Made by a program: the position numbers and the translations under genes. A DNA stretch of 64,000 nucleotides from Lachnospiraceae bacterium. GTDB lineage: Bacteria; Bacillota; Clostridia; Lachnospirales; Lachnospiraceae. Of the stretch, positions 10,512 to 49,639 are shown piece by piece; positions within the stretch are counted from its first letter, which is position 1, and each line of letters starts with the position of its first letter. The DNA lies in assembly GCA_045117595.1 (NCBI GenBank), contig JBGUNV010000002.1:2659-66658 (forward strand), given 5' to 3'. Under the pieces are notes generated by a model, which was given only the letters and a program-made list of their open reading frames with translations, did no database searches and was not told the origin of the DNA.

Positions 10512-10558
10512 CAACTTTTTTGTTAGTTTAGTGAATAGATGGAATATGATGGGAAAAG

Positions 10559-11335: not shown

Positions 11336-11340
11336 GGAAT

Positions 11341-14010: not shown

Positions 14011-14102
14011 GTAAAAATCACCGATCCCGTAAGCTCCGGCCCTTTTGACCTTTGTGAGATTATAACTTTTTTTGGGGACGAGTTCAATAACAGTCATTTT
14101 AT

Positions 14103-14131
14103 TTGCTTTTTTTCATCTACTATGGTAGAAT
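14103..14131 (+). promoter_or_regulatory. Putative promoter of tRNA-Thr
   Basis: TTGCTT (14103-14108), a 17-nt spacer, then TAGAAT (14126-14131) with an upstream TG. It lies 12 nt before the tRNA 5' end. Confidence 0.5.
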
Positions 14132-14143
14132 CTTCTAGGTTTA

Positions 14144-14216
14144 GCTGACGTGGCACAGTAGGTAGCGCACCGCATTGGTAGTGCGGAGGTCTCGGGTCCG
14201 ATTCCCGACGTCAGCA
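14144..14216 (+). tRNA. tRNA-Thr (anticodon GGT)
   Basis: Manual cloverleaf. Acceptor GCTGACG pairs with CGTCAGC. The anticodon stem is CCGCA/TGCGG with loop TTGGTAG. The T-stem is TCGGG/CCCGA, and the T-loop is the unusual TCCGATT. Confidence 0.8.
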
Positions 14217-14226
14217 TTTGAAGACA

Positions 14227-14277
14227 GGGAGACACCGCAAACCCCTTTTGCAAAGCGGGACTCCCTTCTTTTTTTAT
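14227..14277 (+). terminator. Intrinsic terminator after tRNA-Thr
   Basis: Composite hairpin GGGAG..CCGC...GCGG..CTCCC followed by TTCTTTTTTTATT. Confidence 0.6.
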
Positions 14278-14278
14278 T

Positions 14279-15667
14279 ATGAGAAAACTTATAGGAAACA
14301 GACAATTTTATAAGACCCTGTTTTCCATCGCCCTGCCGATCATGATCCAGAACGGCATCTCAAATGTCGTCAACATGCTCGACAACCTTATGGTAGGACG
14401 TATTGGTACGGAGCAGCTGTCGGGCGTTTCCATCGTGAACGACCTTATGTTCGTGTACCAGCTTTGCCTGTTCGGAGCGATAAGCGGAGCCGGGATTTTT
14501 ACTGCGCAGTACTATGGCCAGAAAAATACCGAAGGCATCAGGAATACCTTTCGCATAAAGGTGGTCATCTGCGGTGTTATCATGCTCGCGGGACTCCTGC
14601 TATTCGGTTTCAGGGACAAAACGCTGATATCATATTATCTTCATGAAGGGTCTGAAAGCGGTGATCTTGCTGCAACACTCGGATATGCACATGTCTATAT
14701 GATGATAATGCTGGGCGGACTCCTTCCGCAGGCTGCCGAGTTCGTATATTCTTCGACCCTGCGTGAGACGGGAGAGACACTCGTTCCGATGAGGGCCAGC
14801 TTTGTTGCGGTATTCCTCAACCTTGTTCTGAACTATATACTGATATACGGAAAGCTCGGGTTCCCGGTAATGGGTGTTGCCGGGGCAGCTGTTGCCACGG
14901 TCATCTCCAGGATAGTTCAGGCGGGCATAGTTATGCTGTGGACACACAGACATGCAAATCTTATGCCTTATATAACGGGAGTTTATTCGACCTTTAAGGT
15001 CGGTTCGGGACTTATCAAAAAAGTATGTATCACCGGTCTTCCGCTTGTGATAAACGAGAGTCTCTGGTCTATCGGAATAGTGCTTCAGAAGCAGAGCTAT
15101 TCAACCAGGGGGCTTGCTGTTGTTGCCGGACTTAATATCAATTCGACGTTCTTTAACGTTTTTTCGATCTGTTTCGTAGCGTTTGGGGATGCCGTTGCCA
15201 TAATCGTCGGCCAGCTTCTCGGTGCCGGCAAAATGGATGAGGCCAAGGATACCGGAATTAAGATCAATGCGTTTGTGACGCTTTCGTGTACCGTTATGGG
15301 AGCGATACTTGTTGCGGTAGCACCGCTTCTTCCGCAGTTTTACAATACCACAGCCGAAGTAAAGGCGCTTGCCCGTGATTTTCTCCGTATAACGGGCATC
15401 ATGATGCCGCTGTTCGGACTGTGTCACAGCCTGTATTTCACGATACGGGCAGGAGGCAGGACGATTATAACGTTTTTGTTCGACAGTGCATTTCTGATGG
15501 TCATCGGCGTTCCGCTTGCCTTCGTACTTACAAGGTATACAGGCCTTAGCATAGTGACCGTTTACGCGATATGTGAAGGAACCGCGCTGATCAAGGTTAT
15601 CATCGGTTTTATCATTTCCGCGAGCGGAGTGTGGATGCAGAACATAGTGGCAACTGAAGAAACATGA
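14279..15667 (+). CDS. MATE family efflux transporter
   Basis: 462 aa with 12 TM segments. The N-terminus FYKTLFSIALPIMIQNGISNVVNMLDNLMVGRIG is typical of MatE. No obvious Shine-Dalgarno sequence precedes the ATG. Confidence 0.9.
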   Translation: MRKLIGNRQFYKTLFSIALPIMIQNGISNVVNMLDNLMVGRIGTEQLSGVSIVNDLMFVYQLCLFGAISGAGIFTAQYYGQKNTEGIRNTFRIKVVICGVIMLAGLLLFGFRDKTLISYYLHEGSESGDLAATLGYAHVYMMIMLGGLLPQAAEFVYSSTLRETGETLVPMRASFVAVFLNLVLNYILIYGKLGFPVMGVAGAAVATVISRIVQAGIVMLWTHRHANLMPYITGVYSTFKVGSGLIKKVCITGLPLVINESLWSIGIVLQKQSYSTRGLAVVAGLNINSTFFNVFSICFVAFGDAVAIIVGQLLGAGKMDEAKDTGIKINAFVTLSCTVMGAILVAVAPLLPQFYNTTAEVKALARDFLRITGIMMPLFGLCHSLYFTIRAGGRTIITFLFDSAFLMVIGVPLAFVLTRYTGLSIVTVYAICEGTALIKVIIGFIISASGVWMQNIVATEET

Positions 15668-15740
15668 ATATTCCCGGGATCGCGGGCTGTTTGCATAAAG
15701 AATCCTGTTGTGGTAGTATTTGATAAATGAATATTGAATG

Positions 15741-15935
15741 ACGGACGGTGCCGGCGCACAGACCAGGTGATCATGATATACAGGTCTTGGCAACGGTTAA
15801 AAGGGAAACAGGTGCAAAACCTGTGCGAACTCGTCACTGTAAGCGAGGAGTGTGAACATCGTAATATGTCACTGGGTATACCGGGAAGGCAGATGTTCAT
15901 TCGAGGATCCGCGAGCCAGGAGACCTGCCGCCCGT
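15741..15935 (+). promoter_or_regulatory. Cobalamin (B12) riboswitch aptamer
   Basis: Conserved core elements GGTGCC, AAAAGGGAAACAGGTGCAAAACCTGTGC, CACTGT, GTCACTGG, GGGAAGGC and the B12 box GAGCCAGGAGACCTGCCG. A P1-like pairing joins ACGGACGG (15741-15748) and CCGCCCGT (15928-15935). Confidence 0.85.
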
Positions 15936-16103
15936 AGCAGTACTGGATGCAGCATTTCCTGCATCCGTGTCACGAGTAATTGACTGTACTATATGTAGCA
16001 AGGAGGGGCCCGCGAAGCGGGAGGAGACCTTGCTACACCGCGAGGCCTATCGCGAAGCGATTTCTGATGGCCGAGCGACCTTGTATATCTGTGTCAATTT
16101 ACT

Positions 16104-16135
16104 CATCCGGCAAATGTCGGGTGATTTTTTATTTT
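16104..16135 (+). terminator. Intrinsic terminator, probable riboswitch expression platform
   Basis: Hairpin CATCCGGC-AAAT-GTCGGGTG followed by ATTTTTTATTTT. It lies 17 nt upstream of the cbiK-like ATG. Confidence 0.65.
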
Positions 16136-16151
16136 ATAATGTTATGGAGGT

Positions 16152-17810
16152 ATGATAATGAAAAAGAAGATTGTTGCTGTGATCATGGCTGTTGCCGTAT
16201 CTGCTGTGCTTAGTGCATGTGCAGGAGTAAATGTTAACGTTACTCCCAGAGCAGGTGAGGCAGAAGAATCTACAGGTGCGACAGAAAATCCCGTAAGGGG
16301 AGGAGATGATGGTCCGGATCTGGATCAGGTAAAGGCTGATGCCGTGGCTGAGCTTATTGATGCCATCTATGTTCAGGAGCGCAATGATGAGACCGATGCA
16401 CAGTGTGAGCTTGCAAAACAGGAATGGGATCTCCTTACCGATGAGCAGAAGGAACTTGTTGAAGGCGAATTTGCGGATCCCGATTATTTCGGAAGAGATA
16501 CAGGCGATGCCTCGGCAGATGATCCGTTAAATGCGGATGACATCGGACGTGATGAGATACTTGTCGTAAGTTTCGGCACATCATTCAATGATTCGAGGGT
16601 TGAGGACATAAGCGGAGTTGAAAAGGCCATCCAGGAAGCTTTTCCCGACTGGTCCGTAAGACGCGCATTTACCGCTCAGATCATAATCAATCATATCCAG
16701 GCCAGAGACGGAGAGAAGATCGATAACATGGATCAGGCTCTCGAGCGGGCTGTTGCAAACGGGGTGAAAAATCTCGTGATCCAGCCGACACACCTGATGC
16801 ACGGGGCTGAATATGACGAACTTGTTGCGGCAGTTGATGCATATTCGGACAAGTTTGAAACGATAGCAGTTGCGCAGCCGTTGCTTGGAGAAGTAGGAAA
16901 AGATGCTTCCGTTATCAATGACGACAAAAAGACGGTTGCCGAAGCCATCACGGCCGAGGCGGTTAAAACTGCGGGTTATGACAGCCTGGATGCAGCCGAA
17001 AAGGACGGGACCGCATTTGTATTTATGGGTCATGGTACAGCTCATACTGCCAAGGTAAGTTATGACCAGATGTCATCTCAGATGGAGGATCTCGGATATA
17101 AGAATGTTTTCATCGGAACGGTTGAAGGTGAACCTGAGGATACGGCCTGCGAAAATGTCATAGAGAAGGTTAAGGAGGCCGGTTATAAGAAGGTCATTCT
17201 CCGTCCGCTTATGGTAGTTGCAGGGGATCATGCAAACAACGACATGGCAGGCGATGAAGACGACAGCTGGAAGAGCATGTTTACCGCATCAGGAGCATTT
17301 GATCAGATTGACTGCCAGATAGCAGGCCTTGGAAGGATCGATGCAATAAAGAATCTGTATATAGAGCATACAAAGGCAGCTATAGATGGTATGGATCAGG
17401 CAGGTGCTGATAAGGAAGATGGTGCGGAGTCTGCAGGAGAGGCGGGCGAGCTTGCCGATGGTACTTATGAAGCAGAATTTACAACAGACAGCTCCATGTT
17501 CCATGTTAACGAGGCAAAGGACGGAAAGGGCGAGCTTACAGTAAAGGACGGAAAGATGACGATCCATGTAAGCCTTGCAACCAAGAATATAGTTAACCTC
17601 TACCCGGGACTGGCTTCGGATGCCGAAAAGGACGGAGCCGAGCTGCTCGAGCCTACTGTTGATACCGTGGAGTATTCGGATGGTACGACTGAGGAGGTAT
17701 ACGGATTTGATGTTCCCGTTCCCGCTCTTGACGAGGAGTTTGATCTTGCCATAATAGGAACCAAGAACAAATGGTATGACCACAAGGTGAGTGTATCTGT
17801 AGTAGAATAA
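16152..17810 (+). CDS. Lipoprotein with a CbiK-type (class II anaerobic) chelatase core and an extra C-terminal domain
   Basis: Signal peptide plus lipobox (AVSAVLSAC). CbiK-like blocks ILVVSFGTSFNDSR, LVIQPTHLMHGAEY and FVFMGHGTAH. The C-terminal region of about 115 aa is homologous by eye to the N-terminus of the next ORF. Confidence 0.7.
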   Translation: MIMKKKIVAVIMAVAVSAVLSACAGVNVNVTPRAGEAEESTGATENPVRGGDDGPDLDQVKADAVAELIDAIYVQERNDETDAQCELAKQEWDLLTDEQKELVEGEFADPDYFGRDTGDASADDPLNADDIGRDEILVVSFGTSFNDSRVEDISGVEKAIQEAFPDWSVRRAFTAQIIINHIQARDGEKIDNMDQALERAVANGVKNLVIQPTHLMHGAEYDELVAAVDAYSDKFETIAVAQPLLGEVGKDASVINDDKKTVAEAITAEAVKTAGYDSLDAAEKDGTAFVFMGHGTAHTAKVSYDQMSSQMEDLGYKNVFIGTVEGEPEDTACENVIEKVKEAGYKKVILRPLMVVAGDHANNDMAGDEDDSWKSMFTASGAFDQIDCQIAGLGRIDAIKNLYIEHTKAAIDGMDQAGADKEDGAESAGEAGELADGTYEAEFTTDSSMFHVNEAKDGKGELTVKDGKMTIHVSLATKNIVNLYPGLASDAEKDGAELLEPTVDTVEYSDGTTEEVYGFDVPVPALDEEFDLAIIGTKNKWYDHKVSVSVVE

Positions 17811-35868: not shown

Positions 35869-35897
35869 TTGTAAAAGTATGTGATTGACATTATAAT
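35869..35897 (+). promoter_or_regulatory. Putative promoter of the TIR/RyR operon
   Basis: TTGTAA (35869-35874), a 17-nt spacer, then TATAAT (35892-35897). It lies 48 nt upstream of the ATG, which has the Shine-Dalgarno sequence GAGGAGG. Confidence 0.5.
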
Positions 35898-35945: not shown

Positions 35946-37844
35946 ATGGGACTATCTAAGGAAGATATCAGAAGGAGAAATGAAGCGACCGTAGGAATAA
36001 GGACATTTGAACCCAAGGATGATAAGGATTATGTGTTTATCAGCTATAAAAGTGATAACTGGGAAATCGTTCTGGATGAAATAGTCAGAAAACTGGTCGA
36101 TAAATACGGCCTTCGTGTATATTTTGATAAGAATTTCGATCGTGATAATGAATCCTGGGTAACTAATATGGAGGATGCTATCAGAACACAAAAGTGCAAG
36201 GCAATCCTTTCATTTGTCAGTAAAGAGTATATGGAAAGTTATGCATGCCTGATGGAACTGCTGACCGCAAGGTCCAAAAAAGCAAAATCCAAACATAAAA
36301 AAGACAGACTTACCATTTGTCCCATTATAATAAGTGAGGCAAAATCTATAAATGATCTTGCATCCACATCAAGTGACAGAGTGGAAATAAAAGAATGGGA
36401 TGATTACTCGGCTATCGTAGAAAATGCATTTGAAAATGATGAGTGGGTCAAGGGTGATGTCAAGGACTCGATTGGTGAACTGTTGGATAACGGGTCAAGG
36501 GCTACTATAGAAGATATTTCATCTGCGATGGAATCAATTCTTGATGATAAAACACATCTGCGGACATATGACGGGTCGGACCTGTTCTATGAGAATCTGG
36601 TTGATTCGCTGAAAAAGGAAAGTGACACCATTTTTGAGGAGATCAAACCCGTTAAAGTCGAAAAAGAAACTCCTATAGTCGAAAAGGAAACTCCTAAGAA
36701 AACAGAAACAAAGGTTGCTCCTATCGTTGAAGAAGCAAAGATTTATCATCTGTCCACCAGAACAGGGAATATTGATGTCACATTTCAGGTGGTTGAAAAT
36801 GGTTTTATTGTTAAACAGGGCAGTAAGATACATGAGGCTCAGTTCACTCCTAAGAAGATCATGAAGGCTAACATAGATAAGATATCCCATGGGGTTCTTA
36901 CAGGAGATATTTGTATAGATGGTGACGAGGGAGTATTGTCCCGATTTATTGCGGGAAGCGATAATTATAAGGCCCAGATCAGATCTATGGTGGCCGATAA
37001 TTCCGATAATACAAATGTTTCGAAGCCGGTTGAACAAGAGAAAGAGAGCAAAGAGACAATAGGGGAAACGAAAGTCGGTGATCATTCTGTGATTGATGAC
37101 AAGAGCGCTGCCAAGGAGTTTCTTGCTAAAAAAGGTGTAAGAATCAGCAATAAACTTACTTATGCAGCTTATAACGAAAGGACAGATGGTTTTTGGGCAA
37201 ATCCGAAACCGGATAATCTAAAGGAGGAATGGACATTGATTTTGAACAACAAGATAACAGGAAAACTTGTTGTTCTTATTGTGCCACCTAATAGCATAGG
37301 ACTCGAAAGTGAGAACGTAAATGGTTTGAAAATCAGACGGGACAGACCTGTGATTGACCTCGTCATAAGCGATGATGGTGAGTATACGGATAAAAGAAGT
37401 AAGGTAAGTTTTAAACCGTTTGTTGTTGCGCAGTATTCTTATTCCGGCGACGAAAAGCCGGAGGGAAGACAAGATGGAAGTATGCGTCGCGGTGAAATAG
37501 ATTATTATGTCTATGGAGAAAAGCATTCCGGGGATCAGTCTGATCTTATGTTTGATACCATAGAAGCAGTGCTGACAAGGCATCCGGATATATGCGACAG
37601 AGCAGTACAAAAGTGTACATGTCTTGCATATGGTGACGACATCTATTCGCCTGAGGGTACTCTTGTTCCGTACTTCAGAGGAAAAAGAGAGATTACCGTT
37701 AACGGGAAAAAGGTTTATATAGGTTCGAGTTACGGCCTGGATGCCAAGAAGACTCAGATGCGTTATGTGATAAATCTGGCTCAGGAAAAGATCACGGATG
37801 TAGTTCGGATAGACAGTGAAGACCCCAGATACAGATTTGGATGA
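35946..37844 (+). CDS. TIR-domain protein with a long uncharacterised C-terminal region
   Basis: The N-terminal 110 aa, DYVFISYKSDN...RVYFDKNF...AILSFVSKEYMESYACLMELL, carry the TIR beta-A and catalytic-Glu-helix signatures. A KE/P-rich linker with the tandem repeat VEKETPIVEKETP follows. The remaining region of about 380 aa has no motif I recognise. Confidence 0.7.
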   Translation: MGLSKEDIRRRNEATVGIRTFEPKDDKDYVFISYKSDNWEIVLDEIVRKLVDKYGLRVYFDKNFDRDNESWVTNMEDAIRTQKCKAILSFVSKEYMESYACLMELLTARSKKAKSKHKKDRLTICPIIISEAKSINDLASTSSDRVEIKEWDDYSAIVENAFENDEWVKGDVKDSIGELLDNGSRATIEDISSAMESILDDKTHLRTYDGSDLFYENLVDSLKKESDTIFEEIKPVKVEKETPIVEKETPKKTETKVAPIVEEAKIYHLSTRTGNIDVTFQVVENGFIVKQGSKIHEAQFTPKKIMKANIDKISHGVLTGDICIDGDEGVLSRFIAGSDNYKAQIRSMVADNSDNTNVSKPVEQEKESKETIGETKVGDHSVIDDKSAAKEFLAKKGVRISNKLTYAAYNERTDGFWANPKPDNLKEEWTLILNNKITGKLVVLIVPPNSIGLESENVNGLKIRRDRPVIDLVISDDGEYTDKRSKVSFKPFVVAQYSYSGDEKPEGRQDGSMRRGEIDYYVYGEKHSGDQSDLMFDTIEAVLTRHPDICDRAVQKCTCLAYGDDIYSPEGTLVPYFRGKREITVNGKKVYIGSSYGLDAKKTQMRYVINLAQEKITDVVRIDSEDPRYRFG

Positions 37845-37862
37845 TAAAGCAGGAGAAAAATA

Positions 37863-40301
37863 ATGGCTTATAATGCTCTCGACAGTATGAAAAGGATCAA
37901 TGAAGAATTACTGGGGGTTCAGATCGCCGGTGTTCCGAAGCTTGGAGAGGATATTTTTGATGACGGACCCAAATCAGATATACCGGCTTCGGCCTGCAGG
38001 TTTATCAGGGAATGTGAAGATCTGGGATTCAATCCCGGATCTGATGAGATTGCCTCATACAGGGAACTCCTTGAAAGATTAAATGATCAGAAGGATTTTT
38101 CGACAGATAATAAGTTTACCGGAAAAAGCGCCGGAAGAGGCCAGATACCCGAAAATGTAGAAAAGGATCTGGACAGACTTTCTTTTGAAAATGCGATAAG
38201 ACGATTCTGCAAGACAGGTTCAGGGGATGATGCATTTGATGTCTATTTCTGTTATCTGTCTATATTTTTCGGCGATTACAGAAATACACGGGATATCATC
38301 GAGATGCTCTGTGAATTTGAGAATAATGCGGGATCCCTGCTGATGAAACACAGGGATCACTATTCACATTCCGTTTATGTTTTTCTTATCGGACTTGCCA
38401 TATACGAGAACAACAGACTGTATCGTAACAGTTATTCTGAGTATTACAACCGGAAGATGAAGTCCGAGGGAAGGGAAGAGACATTAAATGAGATCGGAGC
38501 GAGAAGACATTTTCTGAAGTTCTGGGGTCTGACATCATTGTTCCATGATATCGGATATCCGTTTGAATTGCCTTTTGAGCAGATAAAAAGCTATTTTGCA
38601 AACAGTGTTTACAAGAGAACAGCCAGGAGCATCAAGGACAGTTTTATCCAGACAATGCCGTATGTGGCATATCAGAATATGAATGACTTCCTGTCGAATC
38701 TGAATATCAACTCCAGGACAATCACACAGACAGATCTTAATGAAAAGATCGATCAGTGGACAAATAATGAAAGAGTCTGTGATCTGTCGGATGTGTTCTC
38801 ATTGCAGTTATCCAAAATGTTAACGGGTTCGGAGAAGTATTACGATCCGAAGAATGATAAAAATCCGTTTACAGCTTATTGTAAGTCCCGCGGTATCAGA
38901 CTTCTGGAAGATAAAGCACCGGATAATTACCAACAGTTGTACAGACGGTATCTTCAGGATGTGCTTGGTAATAAACCGTCTCATCCGGAAGCATTCAACG
39001 GTTATATGGATCATGCCTATTTTTCTGCTGTTCTGATGCTCCATAAGATGAATGAAATGAAGGAACTACAGATTAACACGGACTATACGGATGCATTGTG
39101 TGCGATACTTTTGCACAACAGCATCTTTAAGCGGGCCATTGTAACAAATGGCAACAGGGATCATGCATTTTCCGTTGATGAGAGCCCGCTTGCATATCTG
39201 CTTATGTTATGTGATGAACTTCAATGTTGGGACAGGGCATCTTACGGACTTAACAACAGAAATGCCATTTATGCCATGGATTGTCATTTTTCGTTTGATG
39301 AATCCGATGATTCGGTGGAAGTAAGATATATTTTTGATGAGTATTTCAAAAAAAACAGACGTCTGGAGTTTTATGACTGGATAAAGGAAAAGGCAGCCGA
39401 GAAAAACAGCTCTCTCAAAGAATACTATAAGAGTTTCAGGGCGTTGGATGAAAATGATTATAAGAATCTGTATGACAGCGAAATATACAGGGATTCGGGG
39501 GAAACGGTTTATCATTACTTTTTGAACATTCTGGATAATCCTTCCGTTGATCTTCCTGAAAAGATGAATGATTATCTCCAGATGAGTACAACAGACAAAG
39601 AAAGCCCCAGTAAGTTCTTTTCCGATCTGGAAGAAATAGTAAAATTAGACGGAACAGAAGGTGTTCTTGTGAGAATACCTCCGGTAGACAGCAAAATTTC
39701 TACTGAGAAACACAAGGAAAAGAATACCTATCTCTCACGGTCAAGTTACATGCATTTATATGATTTTGCTGTAGCACTTAATTATCAATATAATTGCAGG
39801 AATAAGGAAAAAGTCTTTATCGGCGCATCTCCGGATATGATGGAGGAATCATTTGCAGATATATCACTTGAATATCAGCTGTCAAATATCAACCAGGCCA
39901 AGTCATTTGCCGGATATCTGGATGAAATAGGTGCATACTATACGGATCGCCCTGTAGGATACCCTCCTCTTGATCATTTTGAAGATGATGAACTTCGACG
40001 TCTTGGTATTATGGAGCATGACAGATGGTGGGAAGAAAAGAAATCCATGGGCTGGACAGCGGACAAATGGATCAGGGAGAAAGAGGGCGGACACGGAGAG
40101 ATAACAAGCCGGCTCGGTCTTAAGGACAGAGTATGGCTTCGGGAATGTATACATATTCATTGCGATATGAGGAAATTCTCGGAACTTGACCAGAAGGATA
40201 TCCGGAAGGATACCGACCCGATGAATGATATGGTCAGGCTGCTTGAGGAATACGACGGACTGAGGATATACAGAACGCAGAAAAACAAAAAGAATGGTTG
40301 A
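37863..40301 (+). CDS. HD-domain phosphohydrolase fused to a C-terminal RyR-like domain
   Basis: HD superfamily motifs in order: HRDHYSHS, LFHDIGYP, LLHNS, LCDELQCWD. The C-terminus has MEHDRWWEEKKSMGW ... FSELDQKDIRKDTD, which resembles the bacterial RyR repeat. Confidence 0.65.
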   Translation: MAYNALDSMKRINEELLGVQIAGVPKLGEDIFDDGPKSDIPASACRFIRECEDLGFNPGSDEIASYRELLERLNDQKDFSTDNKFTGKSAGRGQIPENVEKDLDRLSFENAIRRFCKTGSGDDAFDVYFCYLSIFFGDYRNTRDIIEMLCEFENNAGSLLMKHRDHYSHSVYVFLIGLAIYENNRLYRNSYSEYYNRKMKSEGREETLNEIGARRHFLKFWGLTSLFHDIGYPFELPFEQIKSYFANSVYKRTARSIKDSFIQTMPYVAYQNMNDFLSNLNINSRTITQTDLNEKIDQWTNNERVCDLSDVFSLQLSKMLTGSEKYYDPKNDKNPFTAYCKSRGIRLLEDKAPDNYQQLYRRYLQDVLGNKPSHPEAFNGYMDHAYFSAVLMLHKMNEMKELQINTDYTDALCAILLHNSIFKRAIVTNGNRDHAFSVDESPLAYLLMLCDELQCWDRASYGLNNRNAIYAMDCHFSFDESDDSVEVRYIFDEYFKKNRRLEFYDWIKEKAAEKNSSLKEYYKSFRALDENDYKNLYDSEIYRDSGETVYHYFLNILDNPSVDLPEKMNDYLQMSTTDKESPSKFFSDLEEIVKLDGTEGVLVRIPPVDSKISTEKHKEKNTYLSRSSYMHLYDFAVALNYQYNCRNKEKVFIGASPDMMEESFADISLEYQLSNINQAKSFAGYLDEIGAYYTDRPVGYPPLDHFEDDELRRLGIMEHDRWWEEKKSMGWTADKWIREKEGGHGEITSRLGLKDRVWLRECIHIHCDMRKFSELDQKDIRKDTDPMNDMVRLLEEYDGLRIYRTQKNKKNG

Positions 40302-41766
40302 TGAAAACAAGGAAAAAAAGAAGATAAAACTGTTCACATGGCCTCTTATCATAATATCTCTTGCGGGTGGTGTGATCAGTTATCTGTACGCAGGTTACAC
40401 GTTTGAAGATGCCTTATATTCGGCGGTTGACATGTTTGCGTTTAATATTGACGATATACCGTTAAATGCAGGCCTTCGGATATTTCGCTGGCTTGCCCCG
40501 CTGTCTGTTGCCACAACGCTTTTTATTGAGATAGCCCCGATATTCCGATGGTTTCGAGACAGGATCGTATTCTTTGCGCCGGGATCCGGCAGGACCATTA
40601 TCTACAGCGACTGTGAAGCCGGTAGCGCGTTATACGATAACATGGAAAAACATGCCGTATTAAGGAGGGAATGTACCCCTTTTGCCCTTTCGGATAATGC
40701 CAACAGATCAGTTATCCTTATGAAAAATGATAAGGATGCGCTCTCTCTTTTTCGAAAGCTCGGAAGACCTGATAACAGTTTTCTGTGTCTGAATTCGATG
40801 GAGCCGTCATTGATACCTTCATCGGGTAATACAGTTGTTTCCAATATCAATGATATAATAGCCGGTTATTTCTGGCATAAGGAGTTTATGGCCTTTGCGG
40901 GAAAGGATACGACCGGAGGACTTTTATCATGGCGCGGTCGTGATGGAATACCGGTTTTTCGAAAAGAAAACGACAGGTGTTTTCGGATCGTGATCTACGG
41001 ATTTACGGACCTCGGTAAAAGACTTCTGTACAAAGGACTGCTGTTCAACATTTTTTCACCGTCTCAACACATTATATATCACGTCTATGATCCGGATCAT
41101 AAAGTATATCTGTACCGCAAAGATATAAACAATGCTGTCTCTGTAAATGGTGATAAGGTTTTATTTCACGATAACCCGGATGATCTCGCGAAGATCCTGA
41201 ATGAAGCTGATGCGATAATAATACCCGGGTCTTCGAATCCACGTTTAATACAGGAACTGCTGTATTCAACCGCCAAACCCGAACTGTATTATTATGATCC
41301 GGAGGGAGTAGGACTTGAGACTGTATTCGCCTCAGACGATCGTGTGGTCCGGGAGGGGTTGTATGGCAGGTTACATGCGTTCGGATCGGATAAGAAGATA
41401 TTCATCGAAAAATATATTCTTCACAGCAGTCTTATAGAAAAAGCCCGGAAGATCAACGAAGACTACCTTATTTCCAATCCCGGAGAAGGACATGTGTGGG
41501 AGGAACTTTCGGGATTTGATAAAGGCTCAAACGTTAATGCAGCTGATTATATCGAGATAGGCTCAGAGGTAAGTTCGTGGGATATGTTCTCCCTTGATGA
41601 ACTTGCAAGTTTAGAACATGACAGATGGCGAAGATATAATTATTTAAATCATCAGGGTTCTAACAGCAATCCGGCGGGAAACTCCAGATATTTCGTTCCA
41701 TTTTCCGAACTTGATGAAGCTGATAAGGAAAAGAACAGAAGGATAGTAAGATTATGGACATTTTAG
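40294..41766 (+). CDS. 2-TM channel-like membrane protein with Rossmann/RCK-like segments and a C-terminal RyR-like domain
   Basis: TM1 WPLIIISLAGGVISYLYAGY, a pore-helix-like FEDALYSAVDMFAF, and TM2 FRWLAPLSVATTLFIEIAPIF. A TrkA-N-like segment is FRIVIYGFTDLGKRLL. The C-terminus has LEHDRWRRYNYL...FSELDEADKEKNRR. It overlaps the upstream gene by 8 nt. Confidence 0.55.
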   Translation: MVDENKEKKKIKLFTWPLIIISLAGGVISYLYAGYTFEDALYSAVDMFAFNIDDIPLNAGLRIFRWLAPLSVATTLFIEIAPIFRWFRDRIVFFAPGSGRTIIYSDCEAGSALYDNMEKHAVLRRECTPFALSDNANRSVILMKNDKDALSLFRKLGRPDNSFLCLNSMEPSLIPSSGNTVVSNINDIIAGYFWHKEFMAFAGKDTTGGLLSWRGRDGIPVFRKENDRCFRIVIYGFTDLGKRLLYKGLLFNIFSPSQHIIYHVYDPDHKVYLYRKDINNAVSVNGDKVLFHDNPDDLAKILNEADAIIIPGSSNPRLIQELLYSTAKPELYYYDPEGVGLETVFASDDRVVREGLYGRLHAFGSDKKIFIEKYILHSSLIEKARKINEDYLISNPGEGHVWEELSGFDKGSNVNAADYIEIGSEVSSWDMFSLDELASLEHDRWRRYNYLNHQGSNSNPAGNSRYFVPFSELDEADKEKNRRIVRLWTF

Positions 41767-41775
41767 GAGGAAAAG

Positions 41776-44625
41776 ATGAAACTTGTAATAAGGACGAGAG
41801 GCGATCTGACATCAAGAGATAAAGAAAAAGTGCTATTGGCGATTGCATCGGATGATATAGGATTATATGCCGATGTGATGATTGAGGATCTCCTTAAGGC
41901 TGCAAATGTAGCGGTATATTATCCTGCGTCAGCAAATGATACAAAAGACGGTGTGATAGAGATTGATGAGACGAAACCCGAAGAGTATTTGGAGGAATTT
42001 CGCCTGATCATATTTCCTGTAACGATGAACTTTCTGGAAAAGGATAATCCTGTCCGGGACCAGATCCTGCCGTATGTTATTCATCATAAAGCGTATATAC
42101 CCATAATACTGGAGAGGGATCTGTTGGAGAGTTTTGGTGATCATTTTGGAGACATTCAGTTCCTTGACCGGTACGGTCTATACAAAAAGGGCGAAAACGA
42201 AATCCCGTACGAGGAAAAACTGAAGCTGAGAATGAGCGAGGTCATAACCTCTGACAGCGAGCGTGACAGGATAGATGATGCATTCAGGGCTATGATATTT
42301 TTAAGTTACAGGAAGATTGACCGGGTTGAGGCGCAGAAACTGATGAATCTGGTTCATAGTGATCCGGACTGTGAGGATATAGCTATCTGGTATGATGAGT
42401 ATCTTGTACCTGGTGAGGATTTTAATGAAGCGATCAGGAGTGCCATGGATAGATCAGATGTTATCGCACTCAATGTAACGAATAATCTTCTTGAGATCAC
42501 GAACGGAAAACCCAATTATGTGATGGATCAGGAATATCCGAATGCGAGAAGGAGCCAAAAGCCCATAATCTCGGTAGAAATGGAGAAAACAGACAAAGAA
42601 GCGCTCAGGGAACATTACGAGAAAATAGATGACAGTCTGGTGACGGTTGATGAACATGATAAGGTCCCCGAAGAGCTGAAACGCGTACTGGACCGGATCC
42701 GGGATGAACTCAGGACCAAGAATGCTGACAAAAAGGCTCTTTCGGAAGAAGAGAAGGAATACTATCTGGGACTTGCATATCTGGGTGGTGTCAATACCGA
42801 GAAGGATCAGATGAGGTCGAAGGAATTACTCGAACGATCTGCAAACCAGGGCCTTGCCAGGGCAATGAAGAAACTATCCCATGCTTACAGAAACGGTGAC
42901 CTGGGAGATATCAGTATTGAAAAATCGGCGGAGTGGATGAAGGAAGCTGTTGAGAACGAGGCTGGTGAAGCTGTTGCATGTGCCGACAGAGAATCTTTTG
43001 AACTGTTCAGGGAAGACTGTCTGGACCTGTGGGATATGTATGATTCGATAGAAGATGATACCGGGAGAGACCATTGTAAAACGCTGATGGTTGATGCCTG
43101 GCGCAAACTCCGTCAGAGTATCAGAGAAGATATGGAGTTGTATGAGATCGTTACGGGATCTTGCGTCAGGGCATGCTGCAGAAGGGGCGATACAGTCACG
43201 TGCAGGGAGGTGCTTCAGGATATCGATTCACTCTTCAACAATCATCAGGGACTTGATGAATGTAAACTTGTCGTGTCACTTCGTTCGGATGCTGCATACA
43301 GAATGGGAGATTATTCTCTGGCTCAATATGTCGGGGGTGCTATGAGGATCATAGAAACAGAGTTTGGGGACAGTGTTTCCGATGATGAAATGTATGATCT
43401 GTATTATCTGATGACCAGGGGTTATTCCGGGAAGGACATAATAGACGGCCTTGCTTTATTCGGAACATCTTTGCGAGTGTCAGAGGAATATCTGCAAACA
43501 GAATATTTGTGGTGGGACAGCTCCGATAAGGCAATAGCTATCACGCAGAAGTGCCTGGCGGATGATCCGGAAGATACACTTTGGAAGAAAAGAAGAGCTG
43601 AAATACTCATGGAAAAAGGCAACCTGATCAGCCGATCCATCTGTGCAGTACAGTGTGATCTTGTTGATAAAGAAGTTGATGATGCGGCATTTTCATATAT
43701 GACTGAAGCAATAGGCCTGTATAAGGAGATCATTCATGATATCGGGGATAAAAATGAGATCAGGAGAGTAATAGAAGAGATTAAAAGATCCGGATTCTTC
43801 CTGATATCCAACTATCCCGAGAGGATGCCTGATATAACGGGAGTAGAGTTCTACAGGTATTCGGTAGAACTGGCAGAATCTTTGTATAAAGAGGAGAAAA
43901 GTCGTGAAAATCTGCTGTTTCTCTGGGAGACAGTAAGTTATTGCTGCGAGATAGGCTATATATATGATCTTCCGGATAAGGCCATCGCTATCGCAAAGGA
44001 ACTGTATGAGAGCGATCACACGCTATCGTCATACGAACACGTTGCCAAGGCATATGAACTGAAGGCTACACGAGGGTTTGGCAGGGCCGGCGAACTCGAA
44101 TATGAGATTGCCACCAATGAAGCCGGTGCACAGGCACAATCGGGTGACTATGATGATATCGATATGGAATCGTTTGCGCGACTGTTTGATGAGTATATTG
44201 CTTTTTTCAGCAACAGAAGAGATGCGGTTGAACCGGAGGAGACGGATTTTATACTGTTAAAAAGGGAAGGAACCGAAGCTCTGTCTTATGCAGTGGCTAT
44301 ATACAGGGAAGTGTATGATAAAGCGGGAATGATGTCTGAACGCTATCGGAAAAAGATTCTCGGTAATATCATCAGCTGTTACAGATCGTTTGAGGCATGT
44401 GCCGATGTGGAAGATGGTGATTTCGGTAAAAAGGCGCTCGATAAACTGGCAGAGGGAATGGATTTTATACTGAATGAAGCTTCCGCGAAGGATACCATAA
44501 TTTCGCCTGACTGGTTTAAAGAATGGAGAAGTATGTATAATACGGCCCTTGACGGCGGTTATGACAGCGAGGCACTCTCAGTCAGAAGATCCCGTGCCGA
44601 GAGTTTGGCGGGAGACAGGATCTGA
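41776..44625 (+). CDS. Tandem TIR-like domains + SEL1/TPR-like repeat protein
   Basis: Residues about 172-270 read IFLSYRKIDRVEAQKL...IAIWYDEYLVPGEDFNEAIRSAMDRSDVIAL...YVMDQEY, which is TIR-like. Residues 1-130 resemble a second, degenerate TIR. A SEL1-like segment reads YYLGLAYLGGVNTEKDQMRSKELLERSANQGLARAMKKLSHAY. A helical-repeat region of about 550 aa follows. Confidence 0.65.
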   Translation: MKLVIRTRGDLTSRDKEKVLLAIASDDIGLYADVMIEDLLKAANVAVYYPASANDTKDGVIEIDETKPEEYLEEFRLIIFPVTMNFLEKDNPVRDQILPYVIHHKAYIPIILERDLLESFGDHFGDIQFLDRYGLYKKGENEIPYEEKLKLRMSEVITSDSERDRIDDAFRAMIFLSYRKIDRVEAQKLMNLVHSDPDCEDIAIWYDEYLVPGEDFNEAIRSAMDRSDVIALNVTNNLLEITNGKPNYVMDQEYPNARRSQKPIISVEMEKTDKEALREHYEKIDDSLVTVDEHDKVPEELKRVLDRIRDELRTKNADKKALSEEEKEYYLGLAYLGGVNTEKDQMRSKELLERSANQGLARAMKKLSHAYRNGDLGDISIEKSAEWMKEAVENEAGEAVACADRESFELFREDCLDLWDMYDSIEDDTGRDHCKTLMVDAWRKLRQSIREDMELYEIVTGSCVRACCRRGDTVTCREVLQDIDSLFNNHQGLDECKLVVSLRSDAAYRMGDYSLAQYVGGAMRIIETEFGDSVSDDEMYDLYYLMTRGYSGKDIIDGLALFGTSLRVSEEYLQTEYLWWDSSDKAIAITQKCLADDPEDTLWKKRRAEILMEKGNLISRSICAVQCDLVDKEVDDAAFSYMTEAIGLYKEIIHDIGDKNEIRRVIEEIKRSGFFLISNYPERMPDITGVEFYRYSVELAESLYKEEKSRENLLFLWETVSYCCEIGYIYDLPDKAIAIAKELYESDHTLSSYEHVAKAYELKATRGFGRAGELEYEIATNEAGAQAQSGDYDDIDMESFARLFDEYIAFFSNRRDAVEPEETDFILLKREGTEALSYAVAIYREVYDKAGMMSERYRKKILGNIISCYRSFEACADVEDGDFGKKALDKLAEGMDFILNEASAKDTIISPDWFKEWRSMYNTALDGGYDSEALSVRRSRAESLAGDRI

Positions 44626-44630
44626 ATCGT

Positions 44631-45869
44631 ATGACTATGAAAACAACCGGTTCGGGAAAAAGTGAATATGAGAAGCTCATGTCGGCATATATGGAAGTCT
44701 GGATAGTTTATGTTCTCAGAACGTTTTCGACACGGGAACATCCCATGAGCCGGAAGGAGATCGCCGACAAGGTCAGTGAACTGATAAATATCGGTACTGT
44801 ATCTGAAACCAGACAATCGGATAATACCATCGCCAAAACCGTTTCCAGAAGACTCGATGAACTTGAAATGATGGGTAATCTCTACGAAGGAGAAGGTGGG
44901 AGCCATGTTCCTCCGGCGTTTTACAGAGTGATGGGAGGAGCGGTAAAAGTAATACAGGATCGCCCTGTCAGATACTATTTTGATCCGATACTTGCTCCCG
45001 GAGAAGTATCGATGATATGTGCCGCGATCGAGAGTAATCATTATCTGTCCCCCGAAGAGATCAATTACCTGATAAAGCGTGAGTGTGCCGTACTGGGGTA
45101 TCAGGAACAGGAATTGCATCTTCCTGTAACAAACTCTGCATCCGGAAGATCGCTCAGGCTTCCCAAACGTCCCAGGTCGGGAAACGATCTCACTCTCCCG
45201 CCGGCAAGGTCATCGGTAACTCTCAGAAAGATCGCAGTTATACAGTATGCCATAGCAAGAAAACTTATGATAAGAGTTATTCCGGGGACATATTCAAACC
45301 GCGACGGCAAGATCGTATTCGGACCCAAAAGGGACAGGGAGAGTATTCTCAATCCGTATGCCATGATCTCTCAGAACGGTCAGTATTATATTGTCGTTAC
45401 CCATGAAGGTTTTACAAATCCCACGCATTACAGGATCGACAGGCTGTTTTCGGTAAGTCTCTGTGAAGATGAGAATCCGAGGAGAAAGCAGATAGCCGGG
45501 TATAAAAAGCGGGAACCTATACCTGTAAGGCTTCAGAGATTTTTTACCGGAAACGGGAAGTTCAAGGCGGATGAGTATACGGCCATATATCCGCTGATGA
45601 TATATAATGAGGGCGAGGGAATAAAACAGTGCCGGTTCCTGTGTGCCAAAAGCGGTGTTACGGTAGCGATAGACCACTTCGGAGTCGGAGTAGGTGTGAA
45701 GATGGAAGAGACGGATGATGATTCAAAGGTTTTGTTTACAGTCATGGCTGATTACAATAATGTCAGATATTTCTGTATCCAACAAAACGCCATTGTAAGT
45801 CCCGTCGCTCCCGATGAACTGAAAGATGATGTGAAACAGGCACTGAAAAAAGCATATGACGCGATATAG
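44631..45869 (+). CDS. wHTH-WYL-WCX transcriptional regulator (BrxR/CapW-like class)
   Basis: The N-terminal wHTH reads MSRKEIADKVSE...TVSRRLDELE. The WYL core reads LNPYAMISQNGQYYIVVTHEGFTNPTHYRIDRLFSV. The C-terminus, FTVMADYNNVRYFCIQQNAIVSPVAPDEL, is WCX-like. Confidence 0.7.
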   Translation: MTMKTTGSGKSEYEKLMSAYMEVWIVYVLRTFSTREHPMSRKEIADKVSELINIGTVSETRQSDNTIAKTVSRRLDELEMMGNLYEGEGGSHVPPAFYRVMGGAVKVIQDRPVRYYFDPILAPGEVSMICAAIESNHYLSPEEINYLIKRECAVLGYQEQELHLPVTNSASGRSLRLPKRPRSGNDLTLPPARSSVTLRKIAVIQYAIARKLMIRVIPGTYSNRDGKIVFGPKRDRESILNPYAMISQNGQYYIVVTHEGFTNPTHYRIDRLFSVSLCEDENPRRKQIAGYKKREPIPVRLQRFFTGNGKFKADEYTAIYPLMIYNEGEGIKQCRFLCAKSGVTVAIDHFGVGVGVKMEETDDDSKVLFTVMADYNNVRYFCIQQNAIVSPVAPDELKDDVKQALKKAYDAI

Positions 45870-45888: not shown

Positions 45889-45917
45889 AAACACATATTT
45901 GTAACGGAGATAATATA

Positions 45918-45952
45918 AGATCACAGAAATGGTTCTGTGGTCTTATTTTTTT
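45918..45952 (+). terminator. Intrinsic terminator closing the five-gene operon
   Basis: Hairpin AGATCACAGAA-ATGG-TTCTGTGGTCT followed by TATTTTTTT. Confidence 0.7.
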
Positions 45953-47668: not shown

Positions 47669-49639
47669 ATGTCAAAAAACATGAACCTTTTAAAACCGGA
47701 TATACGAGATGGACATTTTAAGGGTACAAATGATAATGAACGGTACAGAATCCTTCATATACCGGCGGATGACTGGGATGACCGCCTGGAAGAGGATATC
47801 AGGGCCGGAGCGGTGCAATACGGTGCATGCAGGGAATGTGCCGGGGATAACCATTTCAGATTTGTTATCATTCAGTGCGACACGGAAGAAGAGGGACTGA
47901 ATGCGATAACTTATATCAGGGGAGCCCGGGGATTTGGCGGGGATGCGGATGATGAAGACGATCCCGTCGAAGATGACGGGGATTACGGATGGTTTGAATT
48001 CGATAATAATCTGCCTGTGATCAGCATGAATGAGATAGCAGCATATGAAAAGGAGACATCTGAAGATGTTAATAATCAGTTTTTGTTTCAGGAGGCGAAG
48101 AAGAAGGAAAAAAGCAATCCTTACTGGCTGAGTTACAACGGAGATGTGATCATAACCGACGTGTGTATGACGGATGATTTCGGAAACATTGCGCTTCGTA
48201 ATTATGATCTGAATGCTTTTTCCAATCCTTTCATGGATTCAACCGGCAGTAAATGGAAATGGCATGAATATTTTGATAGATTTATGGAGGATCCGGATGC
48301 AACAGTGTTCTATGTTCTGGTACGGGACAGAGGATTGAAGGAGTTGTTTGAAGAACATAAACAGGATGATACGGATGATGAGTTTGATGATTTCGGTATG
48401 TACAGATGCAATTTTGATGAGGACTATTCTCTGTGTTCGCTCGTGCTGAAATATACGGCGGAAACAGTTGTGATCGATGCTAAAAAGGAGCAGAAGGAGA
48501 AGTATTACACAGGCCTGTTTAAAAACTGGCTGGAAGAATACGGATACACTCTTGAAAAAAGATTCCCGGTCAGGAAGCTGCTTAAGGGCATTTGTATGAT
48601 GGACCCGGCCCCGTCACAGACAATGGACAGGATCTTAAGGTTTATCCGCCACAAGTATCCGGATGTCAAGGTTCTTGAGAGGTCATTGTTCACCCAGACC
48701 GGAGTGCTCAAAAATGTATTTGATTACAAGAACGAAGAGAAGAAGCGCCAGAACCATGAACTTACCATGGATGATCTTGTCGGGATGAAGGATATCAAAA
48801 AGCAGTTCAATGACATCATCAGATCGATCAAGTTCAGTCGAAAGAGGCAGGAAAAAGGTCTTCCGATGCTCGATTACAGGAATATTTTTCTGCTCATAGG
48901 TGCCCCGGGTACAGCCAAGACAACCATGGCCAATATTCTCGGCAGGATGATGAGACAGGAAAAGCTCCTCGGCGGCACCAGATTCGGATCATTTTCCGGA
49001 GCGCAGCTTAAGGCTGAATACGTCGGACAGACGGCCCATAAGGTTCATAGTATATTTGAAAATCACGATATAATAATCATTGATGAGGCTTATTCACTTA
49101 CGGCATCGGATCACGGCGGCATGGATACCTACAGTCAGGAGGCTCTCGGACAGCTTGCCATCGAACTTGAGGAACATGGGACAGACAGGCTTGTATTCTT
49201 TGCGGGGTACGGCGGAAATGATGTAAGTGAGAAGAATAACAAGATGAGGGAGTTTCTTGATGCCAATCCGGGGATCAAGAGCAGGATCAACGGAACGATC
49301 GTTTTTCCTTCATACAGCGCTAAGCAGATGGTTGAGATAGTAAAGGGCATAGCCGGCAGATACGGGTATATATTTGAGGACGGAGCGCTTGACGGACTTG
49401 AAGGATACTATGCAAAGCGTATATGTGACGAGAGGTTCGGTAACGGCAGGGAGGCCAGGAGTTTTGTCGACAACTGTCAGATGACGCTTGCATCAAGAAT
49501 CATGAACATTCCGCCTAATAAGCAGACCAGAAAAATGATGCAGCTTATCACGAAGGAAGACGTGGATATGACCATAAAGCGGCTGTCCGAATCCGACGAT
49601 AATCAGACCGGGAAAAAAGTGATATACGGATTTGCCTGA
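47669..49639 (+). CDS. AAA+ ATPase, SpoVK/CbbX/EccA-like, with an unassigned N-terminal region of about 380 aa
   Basis: Walker A LLIGAPGTAKTT, Walker B IIIIDEAYSL, and a CbbX-type tail with GNGREARSFV. The N-terminus has acidic low-complexity stretches. Confidence 0.8.
   Translation: MSKNMNLLKPDIRDGHFKGTNDNERYRILHIPADDWDDRLEEDIRAGAVQYGACRECAGDNHFRFVIIQCDTEEEGLNAITYIRGARGFGGDADDEDDPVEDDGDYGWFEFDNNLPVISMNEIAAYEKETSEDVNNQFLFQEAKKKEKSNPYWLSYNGDVIITDVCMTDDFGNIALRNYDLNAFSNPFMDSTGSKWKWHEYFDRFMEDPDATVFYVLVRDRGLKELFEEHKQDDTDDEFDDFGMYRCNFDEDYSLCSLVLKYTAETVVIDAKKEQKEKYYTGLFKNWLEEYGYTLEKRFPVRKLLKGICMMDPAPSQTMDRILRFIRHKYPDVKVLERSLFTQTGVLKNVFDYKNEEKKRQNHELTMDDLVGMKDIKKQFNDIIRSIKFSRKRQEKGLPMLDYRNIFLLIGAPGTAKTTMANILGRMMRQEKLLGGTRFGSFSGAQLKAEYVGQTAHKVHSIFENHDIIIIDEAYSLTASDHGGMDTYSQEALGQLAIELEEHGTDRLVFFAGYGGNDVSEKNNKMREFLDANPGIKSRINGTIVFPSYSAKQMVEIVKGIAGRYGYIFEDGALDGLEGYYAKRICDERFGNGREARSFVDNCQMTLASRIMNIPPNKQTRKMMQLITKEDVDMTIKRLSESDDNQTGKKVIYGFA

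Follow-up and report, generated by a model that had tools for sequence, protein, structure and literature searches.

A shared RyR-type module on two putative effectors beside TIR genes in a Lachnospiraceae genome: a candidate Thoeris-type system

A 64,000-nucleotide stretch from the genome of a Lachnospiraceae bacterium (contig JBGUNV010000002.1, hereafter the window) carries seven closely packed genes on the plus strand between positions 35946 and 49639, as judged from the list of open reading frames (ORFs) and the assignments by Pfam, PADLOC and NCBIfam. Two adjacent genes of this block encode an 812-residue protein with a divergent HD phosphohydrolase core (the HD-RyR protein) and a 490-residue membrane protein with two Rossmann-like lobes (the membrane-RyR protein), and both proteins end in the same module, of the type found in the repeats of ryanodine receptors (RyR). 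Genes for proteins with a TIR domain lie 18 and 9 bases away from the RyR genes. We consider the region 35946-45869, perhaps up to 49639, to be a Thoeris-type anti-phage signalling system with a previously undescribed receiver domain, and put the probability of this reading at roughly 0.6. It is based on the fold of the shared module, the conservation of its pocket, the linkage to TIR genes and the structure of the operon.

The shared module and its ligand pocket

A first-pass annotation, made from the DNA letters and translated ORFs, had pointed to a pattern, (L/M)EHDRW ... FSELD, that is common to the ends of the two proteins, and its coordinates and tail peptides proved exact on checking. 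In the HD-RyR ORF, M717 is encoded from base 40011 on and opens the final 96 residues with MEHDRW, and L440 of the membrane-RyR ORF opens the final 51 residues with LEHDRW. The stretches FSELDQKDIRK (residues 772-782 of the HD-RyR protein) and FSELDEADKEK (residues 470-480 of the membrane-RyR protein) are found at corresponding positions. DNA that codes for EHDRW occurs exactly twice on both strands of the 64 kb, at 40014 and 41614, where 0.02 occurrences are expected, and two or more such matches were obtained in 0 of 100 shuffles. These counts, together with the profile statistics given below, rule out that the tails are chance motif matches.

A direct comparison of the two tails by BLASTP yielded just two matches, both short and in collinear order (E 0.005 and 0.03). 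The annotation had named the Pfam RyR model as a check on its assignment, and for the single sequences that check came out below threshold or empty: PF02026 scored 12.6 bits (E 0.17) on the membrane-RyR protein, below the cut-off of 27.4, and did not match the HD-RyR protein. Likewise, searches with either protein alone against the PDB sequences, Pfam, PADLOC, NCBIfam and PHROGs gave no match of significance in the regions of the RyR module or the HD core. Because the pairwise similarity was weak and the single-sequence Pfam searches were sub-threshold or silent, alignments of both families were built. The profile of the membrane-RyR family matched solved RyR repeats in the PDB at E 3e-13, the Bacteroides thetaiotaomicron structure 3NRT at E 2.5e-6 and the phage protein RyDEP (35TM) at E 0.0025, and RyR repeats made up all 29 matches of the HD-tail profile (best E 9e-6). 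At E<=0.01 the Pfam RyR model was reached by five of nine members of the former family and by 11 of 37 members of the latter. When the two tails were compared with hhalign they matched with a probability of 94% (E 1.3e-7), and after a 5'-ward extension of both alignments with a probability of 97% (E 1.2e-10, 116 columns).

The limits of the module as originally drawn, 96 and 51 residues, were too short. It starts ~85 residues N-terminal of EHDRW in the HD-RyR protein and ~60 residues N-terminal of it in the membrane-RyR protein, and measures ~175 and ~110 residues, respectively; a final helix-strand is present in the copy of the former and missing from that of the latter. The module corresponds to the entire protomer of phage RyDEP.

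The assignment of both tails to RyR, as put forward in the first-pass annotation, holds at the level of the fold as well. In fact, the best PDB matches of the whole AlphaFold2 model of the HD-RyR protein (pLDDT 84, pTM 0.90) found by Foldseek are not HD enzymes but structures of RyR Repeat12 (R12), aligned over ~190-210 columns. They include 6uhi (a Bacteroides/human chimera; probability 0.99, 188 columns), 9l91 (human RyR3 R12 with azumolene and AMP-PCP; probability 0.96, 209 columns) and 6uhh (human RyR3 R12 with ATP). Considering the span of these alignments, the last ~190 residues of the protein represent a complete R12-like unit, which in the model reads as a degenerate first half followed by a canonical second RyR repeat. 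The canonical repeat holds H719, W722, W731, H766, K782 and D783. In the model of the membrane-RyR protein (pLDDT 76, pTM 0.72) the C-terminal four-helix module matches phage RyR-domain proteins with a Foldseek probability of 0.99-1.00 (rmsd 4.4-5.1 Å, ~120 columns).

Phage RyR proteins provide a direct precedent for a link between RyR/R12 modules and cyclic ADP-ribose (cADPR), by analogy with which the modules in the window may bind signals of this class. RyDEP cleaves or binds 2'cADPR/3'cADPR, and six of its eight tested homologues bound these molecules, two of them, studied in detail, at nanomolar affinity (Lopez Rivera et al., PMC13232231). In the structure 35TM the catalytic dyad H75/D117 touches the terminal ribose, while the adenine stacks against W78 and the phosphates are bound by H100 (PMC13232231). 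RyR Tad of a Pectobacterium phage binds 3'cADPR with a Kd of 43 nM and also 2'cADPR and cADPR, via the contacts H129/W132, H154 and K170/D171 (10.64898/2026.06.04.730250). Both proteins form back-to-back dimers via the helices alpha1 and alpha4 (PMC13232231; 10.64898/2026.06.04.730250).

The RyDEP sequence was taken from the phage genome and aligned with both families. The module of the membrane family aligned with RyDEP residues 39-119 (hhalign probability 95%, E 1.7e-8, 81 columns) and that of the HD family with residues 73-118 (76%, E 2e-5). Since the spacing is identical, the contacts could be transferred directly: H75/W78/H100/K116/D117 of RyDEP are H719/W722/H766/K782/D783 in the HD-RyR protein and H442/W445/S464/K480/N481 in the membrane-RyR protein. 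All six pocket-lining positions are conserved in each of the 83 distinct HD-RyR tails from the collected loci. Among 137 representative clusters of the membrane family the successive contacts are kept in 136 (H), 134 (W), 135 (H), 122 (K) and 122 (D) cases. The relative encoded at L025:13158-14510 has an intact pocket. In the membrane protein of the window Q454 moreover replaces a Trp, and its closest relatives share the loss of contact residues in part.

The module might instead act mainly as an adaptor between proteins. Its copies on the two proteins would then pair and tether the hydrolase to the membrane protein, without a small-molecule signal. Such a role is in line with the alpha1/alpha4 dimers of RyDEP and RyR Tad, with the deposition of RyR structures of B. 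thetaiotaomicron as dimers (according to their PDB titles), with the degraded pocket of the window's membrane protein and with the 8-base overlap between the stop of the HD-RyR gene and the start of the membrane-RyR gene, which suggests co-translation. Yet the ligand contacts lie outside the interface in RyDEP and do not vary among the 83 HD-RyR tails, including those from 27 loci with a TIR but no membrane-RyR gene and 30 loci with neither, and they are kept in ~90-99% of the membrane family. As the pocket is conserved in loci that lack the partner, a module devoted to the pairing of the HD and membrane proteins only is unlikely. Pairing may nevertheless coexist with ligand binding, and considering the degraded pocket and the translational coupling, the membrane protein of the window may be driven by pairing with the HD module or by its own Rossmann lobes.

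Association with TIR genes

A scan of 185,579 genomes, one per species, recovered a relative of the HD-RyR protein in 517 of them, almost all gut or rumen Clostridia. The neighbourhoods of the best 80 of these 517 loci were analysed with our own HMMs. A TIR gene was found within 3 kb and on the same strand in 49 of the 80, so that the association between RyR and TIR genes, for which the first-pass annotation had asked a survey across genomes, is borne out; Pfam spot checks agreed with the TIR assignments. A membrane-RyR gene is also present in 22 of the 49 loci, usually in the order HD-RyR, TIR, PDDEXK_4 nuclease, membrane-RyR, and the remaining 27 have a TIR but no membrane-RyR gene. The linked TIR proteins vary in size between 250 and 934 residues, while the HD-RyR proteins in the surveyed loci have a constant size of ~650-720 residues, a pattern that suggests that the TIR proteins are diversifying sensors on a constant effector. 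Of 68 distinct linked TIR domains, 62 have the Glu that aligns to the one of VRYEI in Bacillus cereus ThsB, which we take to be the catalytic residue; both TIR proteins of the window are among them.

The complete cassette of TIR, HD-RyR and membrane-RyR genes recurs in four loci of relatives (L001, L003, L009 and L011). The nearest relatives of both RyR genes, in L001 and L003, are again adjacent, and a TIR gene lies 5' of the pair. In L001 these three genes (8316-13991) are the only ones between housekeeping genes. The L003 locus contains in addition a second TIR gene, a pair of GNAT genes and orthologues of the WYL and AAA genes found in the window; the WYL orthologue adjoins the cassette (30% identity, E 1e-45) and the AAA+ orthologue lies beside it (34% identity in a full-length alignment, E 1e-111). 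More distant HD-RyR genes, whose products show ~38% identity, occur together with a TIR gene and a gene for a 660-residue membrane-Rossmann protein with a C-terminal RyR repeat.

Some variation around the cassette was observed. Full-length WYL and AAA+ orthologues (L003:2482-5988) are not found at L001, and the two genes may constitute an optional regulatory or accessory module. A ~405-residue PD-(D/E)XK nuclease (PDDEXK_4, E 1e-16) is encoded between the TIR and membrane-RyR genes in L025 (11892-13109), L040, L047, L065, L075 and L023; it could be a third effector of a larger cassette, and its gene is absent from the window. One HD-RyR protein of the mouse gut, P0096 (gene 8001-10037 in L005-L008), is present in 293 collection blocks. 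Its gene has identical 3' neighbours in four contigs and directly 5' of it wholly different genes in each, which suggests a hotspot for recombination or insertion 5' of the gene.

The RyR modules could also gauge an ordinary adenine nucleotide (ATP, ADP, ADP-ribose or NAD+), as has been proposed for the animal R12. The TIR proteins would then be NAD+-depleting effectors or sensors instead of producers of a signal, and the HD and channel proteins would respond to the metabolic collapse that follows NAD+ depletion. The RyR3 R12 crystals that contain ATP or AMP-PCP (6uhh, 9l91), the many HD-RyR genes that occur alone without a TIR gene, and the TVGYG-type filters in 42 of 145 membrane-family relatives, which fit housekeeping ion regulation, are compatible with this role. 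We nevertheless regard it as rather improbable, given that the frequency of TIR adjacency (61%) is judged to lie far above background, that the variable sensor-like C-termini on the TIR partners follow the Thoeris pattern, and that the phage RyR proteins, through the same residues, have nanomolar affinity for cADPR isomers.

The encoded proteins and their setting

The HD-RyR protein has more than 2000 homologues. The HD-type residues H163/H166/H169, H228-D229 and D451 are invariant in 37 aligned sequences, and so are the motifs KHRDHYSHS, LFHDIGYPFE and LCDELQCWDR of the core. The Pfam HD model was reached by three of the 37 members (best E 2.9e-5) and did not match the protein of the window itself. 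Foldseek returned weak matches of the core to the HD-GYP protein 3tmb and the dNTPases 2dqb and 3bg2, at probabilities of 0.04 or lower. In L003 a 1082-residue protein, encoded at 13646-16894, 3' of the second TIR gene and the two GNAT genes, matches the profile of the HD family; it has no RyR module and no Pfam match.

It may be asked whether the HD-RyR protein is a killer at all or rather clears the signal, either as a RyDEP-like glycosidase or by capturing the signal so that the HD domain can hydrolyse it. It would then reset or dampen TIR signalling, and the true effector would be the membrane protein or the TIR protein itself. HD domains include cyclic-nucleotide phosphodiesterases. The dyad H75/D117 of RyDEP (H719 and D783 here) is kept in all HD-RyR proteins, and the match to HD-GYP 3tmb, at a probability of 0.04 the weakest support, points in the same direction. 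The dyad does not predict catalysis, however, because six of the eight phage homologues that have the same residues bind signals without cleaving them, and in 27 of the 80 loci HD-RyR is the sole non-TIR partner, which is the position of an effector. Altogether a clearing function appears very unlikely.

For the membrane-RyR protein, a word-indexed homologue search gave 8-14 relatives, and an exhaustive search revealed a family of 388 clusters at E<=1e-30. The N-terminus of the model shows a first transmembrane (TM) helix, a short helix and a second TM helix (M1, short helix, M2), which is a pore-loop architecture. This part matches a phage K+-channel domain (Foldseek probability 1.00, 94 columns) and Slo1 (probability 0.98). 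For the Rossmann lobes Foldseek found similarity to two kinds of structure, the RCK gating rings of Slo channels and NAD-dependent dehydrogenases with two lobes. Pfam TrkA_N is present in distant relatives, the relatives P0127-P0129 match Ion_trans_2, and P0127/P0128 combine the latter with a TTVGYGD filter. The membrane protein is derived from a K+ channel, and the label 'channel-like' given to it in the annotation was right as regards the fold. The K+ selectivity filter is absent, with FNIDDIPLNAG in place of TVGYG, and the GxGxxG motif is degenerate. A GYG filter was found in none of the 23 or more TIR-linked relatives. In the family at large a T(V/I)G(Y/F)G filter is kept in 42 of 145 representatives (P0135-P0282). 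The filterless representatives carry another conserved loop, LYF-NPVSD-YN in the TIR-linked ones, and to judge from the sequences this split would suggest that the pore has come to pass something else, or nothing at all.

Both TIR proteins of the window have a Glu at the catalytic position. TIR protein 1 consists of an N-terminal TIR domain (residues ~30-140; Glu in CLMEL, at the position of the catalytic Glu in B. cereus ThsB) and a long C-terminal region, and the Pfam matches to its gene product (window 35946-37844) are confined to TIR families at the N-terminus. It is orthologous to the TIR protein of L001, including a C-terminal domain of ~130 residues (GEIDYYVYGEKHSGDQSDLMFDT...) that is a candidate phage-sensing domain. 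In the L001 orthologue (L001:8316-9977) this domain is tandemly duplicated. TIR protein 2 has its TIR domain at residues ~174-285 (PADLOC ThsB, E 1.7e-4; Glu in MDQEY). Its first ~150 residues (41776-42250), N-terminal of the TIR_2 match, show a beta-alpha pattern (KVLLAIASDD..., LIIFPVTMNF...) and could form a second, degenerate TIR-like domain. We presume that both proteins are sensors of infection and that TIR protein 1 is also the synthase of the signal.

The coordinates of the genes, domains and candidate signals are collected in Table 1. The G+C content of the seven-gene block is 0.40-0.45, against 0.47-0.50 outside it, and the block is flanked by cobalamin-synthesis genes and by tig-clpP-clpX-lon-engB. 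Considering the lower G+C content and this location, it resembles an inserted island. The block also encodes a WYL protein (PADLOC), a type of regulator that accompanies defence systems, and this protein is likely a transcriptional regulator of the island; the AAA+ ATPase (47669-49639) is possibly an accessory gene. The PcfJ-like gene between these two occurs only in the window and not with the L003 cassette. A terminator-like hairpin (45915-45946) overlaps the first ATG of the PcfJ ORF, so that the PcfJ gene may begin further 3' and the genes from TIR to WYL may form a separate transcript. In motif scans the total of promoter-like and terminator-like sites in the region was not above chance.

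Table 1. Positions of genes, protein regions and candidate signals in the window
Feature	Position	Strand	Basis or remark
Promoter-like site TTGTAA-17-TATAAT	35869..35897	+	in the 156-bp gap 5' of the first TIR gene; 10/12 positions; candidate only
TIR protein 1, 632 aa	35946..37844	+	Pfam TIR_2, E 6e-13
HD-RyR protein, 812 aa	37863..40301	+	invariant HD-type motifs; RyR-like tail
Divergent HD phosphohydrolase core, ~aa 95-470	38145..39272	+	invariant motifs in family alignment
R12/RyDEP-like module of HD-RyR protein, ~aa 632-805	39756..40277	+	Foldseek and hhalign
Membrane-Rossmann-RyR protein, 490 aa	40294..41766	+	family alignment; AlphaFold2 model
Two TM helices with pore-helix-like segment between them	40336..40578	+	alignment with P0127/P0128; Foldseek
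Two Rossmann-like (RCK/TrkA-N-like) lobes	40591..41388	+	AlphaFold2 secondary structure; Foldseek
RyDEP-like RyR module of membrane-RyR protein, ~aa 378-490	41425..41763	+	hhalign; Foldseek
TIR protein 2, 949 aa, with Sel1/TPR-like repeats	41776..44625	+	Pfam TIR_2, E 1.9e-7; Sel1, E 1.7e-5
WYL-domain protein, 412 aa	44631..45869	+	PADLOC WYL, E 3.8e-10
Terminator-like hairpin, 14-bp stem and T run	45915..45946	+	directly 3' of the WYL stop
PcfJ-like protein, 572 aa	45929..47647	+	Pfam PcfJ, E 1.5e-9; PHROG matches; system membership uncertain
AAA+ ATPase of SpoVK/CbbX/EccA type, 656 aa	47669..49639	+	Pfam AAA and AAA_lid_6; NCBIfam spore_V_K, E 9e-38

The proposed system and its relation to known systems

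The Thoeris-type reading that we favour can be formulated as a chain of events. Infection would be sensed by the two TIR proteins, with their intact catalytic-position Glu and their large, unrelated C-terminal regions, and these would convert NAD+ to a signal of the cyclic ADP-ribose type. The signal would be read by the four-helix R12/RyR-type module at the C-terminus of the two effectors. Binding to the contact set of the HD-RyR protein (H719, W722, H766 and K782-D783) would switch on the HD phosphohydrolase, probably with the kind of dimerisation seen in the phage RyR proteins, via the outer helices, and the activated enzyme would putatively destroy nucleotides or nucleic acid. The membrane protein, with its two RCK-like lobes, would open or disrupt the membrane. 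The effectors would then arrest or kill the cell.

Several observations weigh against this reading. Neither a TIR nor a membrane-RyR gene is nearby in 30 of the 80 HD-RyR loci (among the 31 loci that lack a TIR gene, the flank is short in 15), and the very common HD-RyR gene of the mouse gut stands alone amid housekeeping genes. The PADLOC models of 2023, NCBIfam and PHROGs gave no defence-family assignment for either RyR protein. In addition, the HD core has no confident neighbour in profile or Foldseek searches, so that a killing activity of this domain is a guess, and as the animal R12 binds ATP or AMP-PCP (6uhh, 9l91) the modules may in nature bind an ordinary adenine nucleotide. Finally, the membrane protein of the window has S464 for the phosphate-binding His and N481 for the Asp. 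The annotation had seen a common receiver on both proteins; the HD-RyR protein agrees with that proposal, but with two contacts lost from the pocket of the membrane protein the full receiver role may, in the window, hold for the HD-RyR protein only.

If the Thoeris-type reading is correct, TIR-based bacterial immunity would gain a new receiver domain and two new types of effector, and the system would be present in hundreds of species of gut and rumen Clostridia. The phage RyR sponges and glycosidases would find an explanation as copies of the host receiver, like other sponges that were derived from host sensors. Whether cyclic ADPR gates animal ryanodine receptors via R12 is still an open question, and a small module on a channel-type protein, encoded beside the enzyme that makes the ligand, would be a bacterial model in which such gating could be tested. 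A more far-reaching view, which we advance only tentatively, is that RyR/R12 is an ancient receiver for cyclic ADPR signals made by TIR proteins, which had been joined to proteins of the ion-channel type in bacteria already, that the membrane-RCK-RyR proteins are channels or pores gated by cADPR isomers, and that HD-RyR is a new and widespread class of Thoeris effectors in gut Clostridia. The long-disputed link between cADPR and the animal ryanodine receptor would in that case have a prokaryotic forerunner.

The separate parts of the system can be related to known proteins. The HD-RyR protein shares the H...HD...D metal-site pattern with HD enzymes of the dNTPase type (dGTPase, SAMHD1), and its HDIG-x-PF presumably resembles their HDIGH-x-PF. 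Bacterial dGTPases are known anti-phage effectors. There is, however, no significant match in sequence or fold, so membership of this group is unsupported and the likeness is a lead for the substrate only. The membrane-RyR protein is built like the RCK/TrkA-N-gated prokaryotic K+ channels, with a 2-TM N-terminus of the pore type ahead of the Rossmann (RCK-like) lobes, and its distant relatives, with Pfam Ion_trans_2, TrkA_N and RyR, are comparable to TrkA_N-RyR proteins. It differs from these channels in the filter, lost in the window protein and every TIR-linked relative, and in the degenerate GxGxxG motif.

With the animal ryanodine receptors the likeness is twofold. In Foldseek the double-repeat R12, which binds adenine nucleotides, is covered in full by the last ~190 residues of the HD-RyR protein (probability 0.96-0.99), and a protein of the ion-channel type carries the module in animals and bacteria alike. 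In the bacterial protein, however, the first half-repeat is degenerate, and the channel-type protein is a 2-TM K+-channel derivative instead of a 6-TM Ca2+-release channel. RyDEP (35TM) and RyR Tad have the same fold over about the same extent, and their H, W, H and K-D contacts have identical spacing. They are small, stand-alone anti-Thoeris proteins of phages, sponges or glycosidases that shut signalling down, whereas the module described here is fused C-terminally to large host effectors encoded beside TIR genes, that is, on the opposite side of the conflict.

A survey of Thoeris systems has distinguished types I-XI with 29 putative effector types, among them an 'ion channel' in type X and a HIT hydrolase in type XI (Yirmiya et al., 10.64898/2025.12.03.692087; text and readable parts of the tables). 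In those parts of the survey, figures aside, RyR, HD, TrkA and the peptides of the linked TIR proteins do not appear. Its type X TIRs are given there as domain stretches of ~140 residues in a type II/VII/X cluster, and are thus unlike the multidomain TIR proteins of 250-950 residues found here. Plasmids that matched a type X TIR proved to carry Thoeris of type II (Macro), and metagenome loci with a type X TIR had Macro, SLATT or TPR-S neighbours and no RyR matches, a comparison made at the level of the TIR and its neighbours and not of the type X effector itself. The two RyR preprints of 2026 cover phage proteins and animal receptors only (PMC13232231; 10.64898/2026.06.04.730250), and full-text literature searches retrieved no host RyR-domain effectors with Thoeris or TIR. 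Judged by this literature, with the 2025 survey represented by its text and the readable parts of its tables, the system is probably undescribed.

The organisation of the locus is that of Thoeris in several respects. A TIR protein with an intact catalytic-position Glu is encoded in one operon with effectors that carry a nucleotide-binding sensor domain, a cassette may contain more than one TIR gene, the C-termini of the TIR proteins vary, and one effector is enzymatic while the other is directed at the membrane. It departs from the types listed in the accessible parts of the survey in that the receiver would be RyR/R12 and not SLOG, Macro, SLATT, DUF2270, DUF6650 or a caspase-associated domain. 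It also differs from them in its effectors, an HD hydrolase and a derivative of an RCK channel, and in the sharing of one receiver by both within a single operon. We therefore consider it probable that the window contains a system with the logic of Thoeris, equipped with a new receiver and new effectors.

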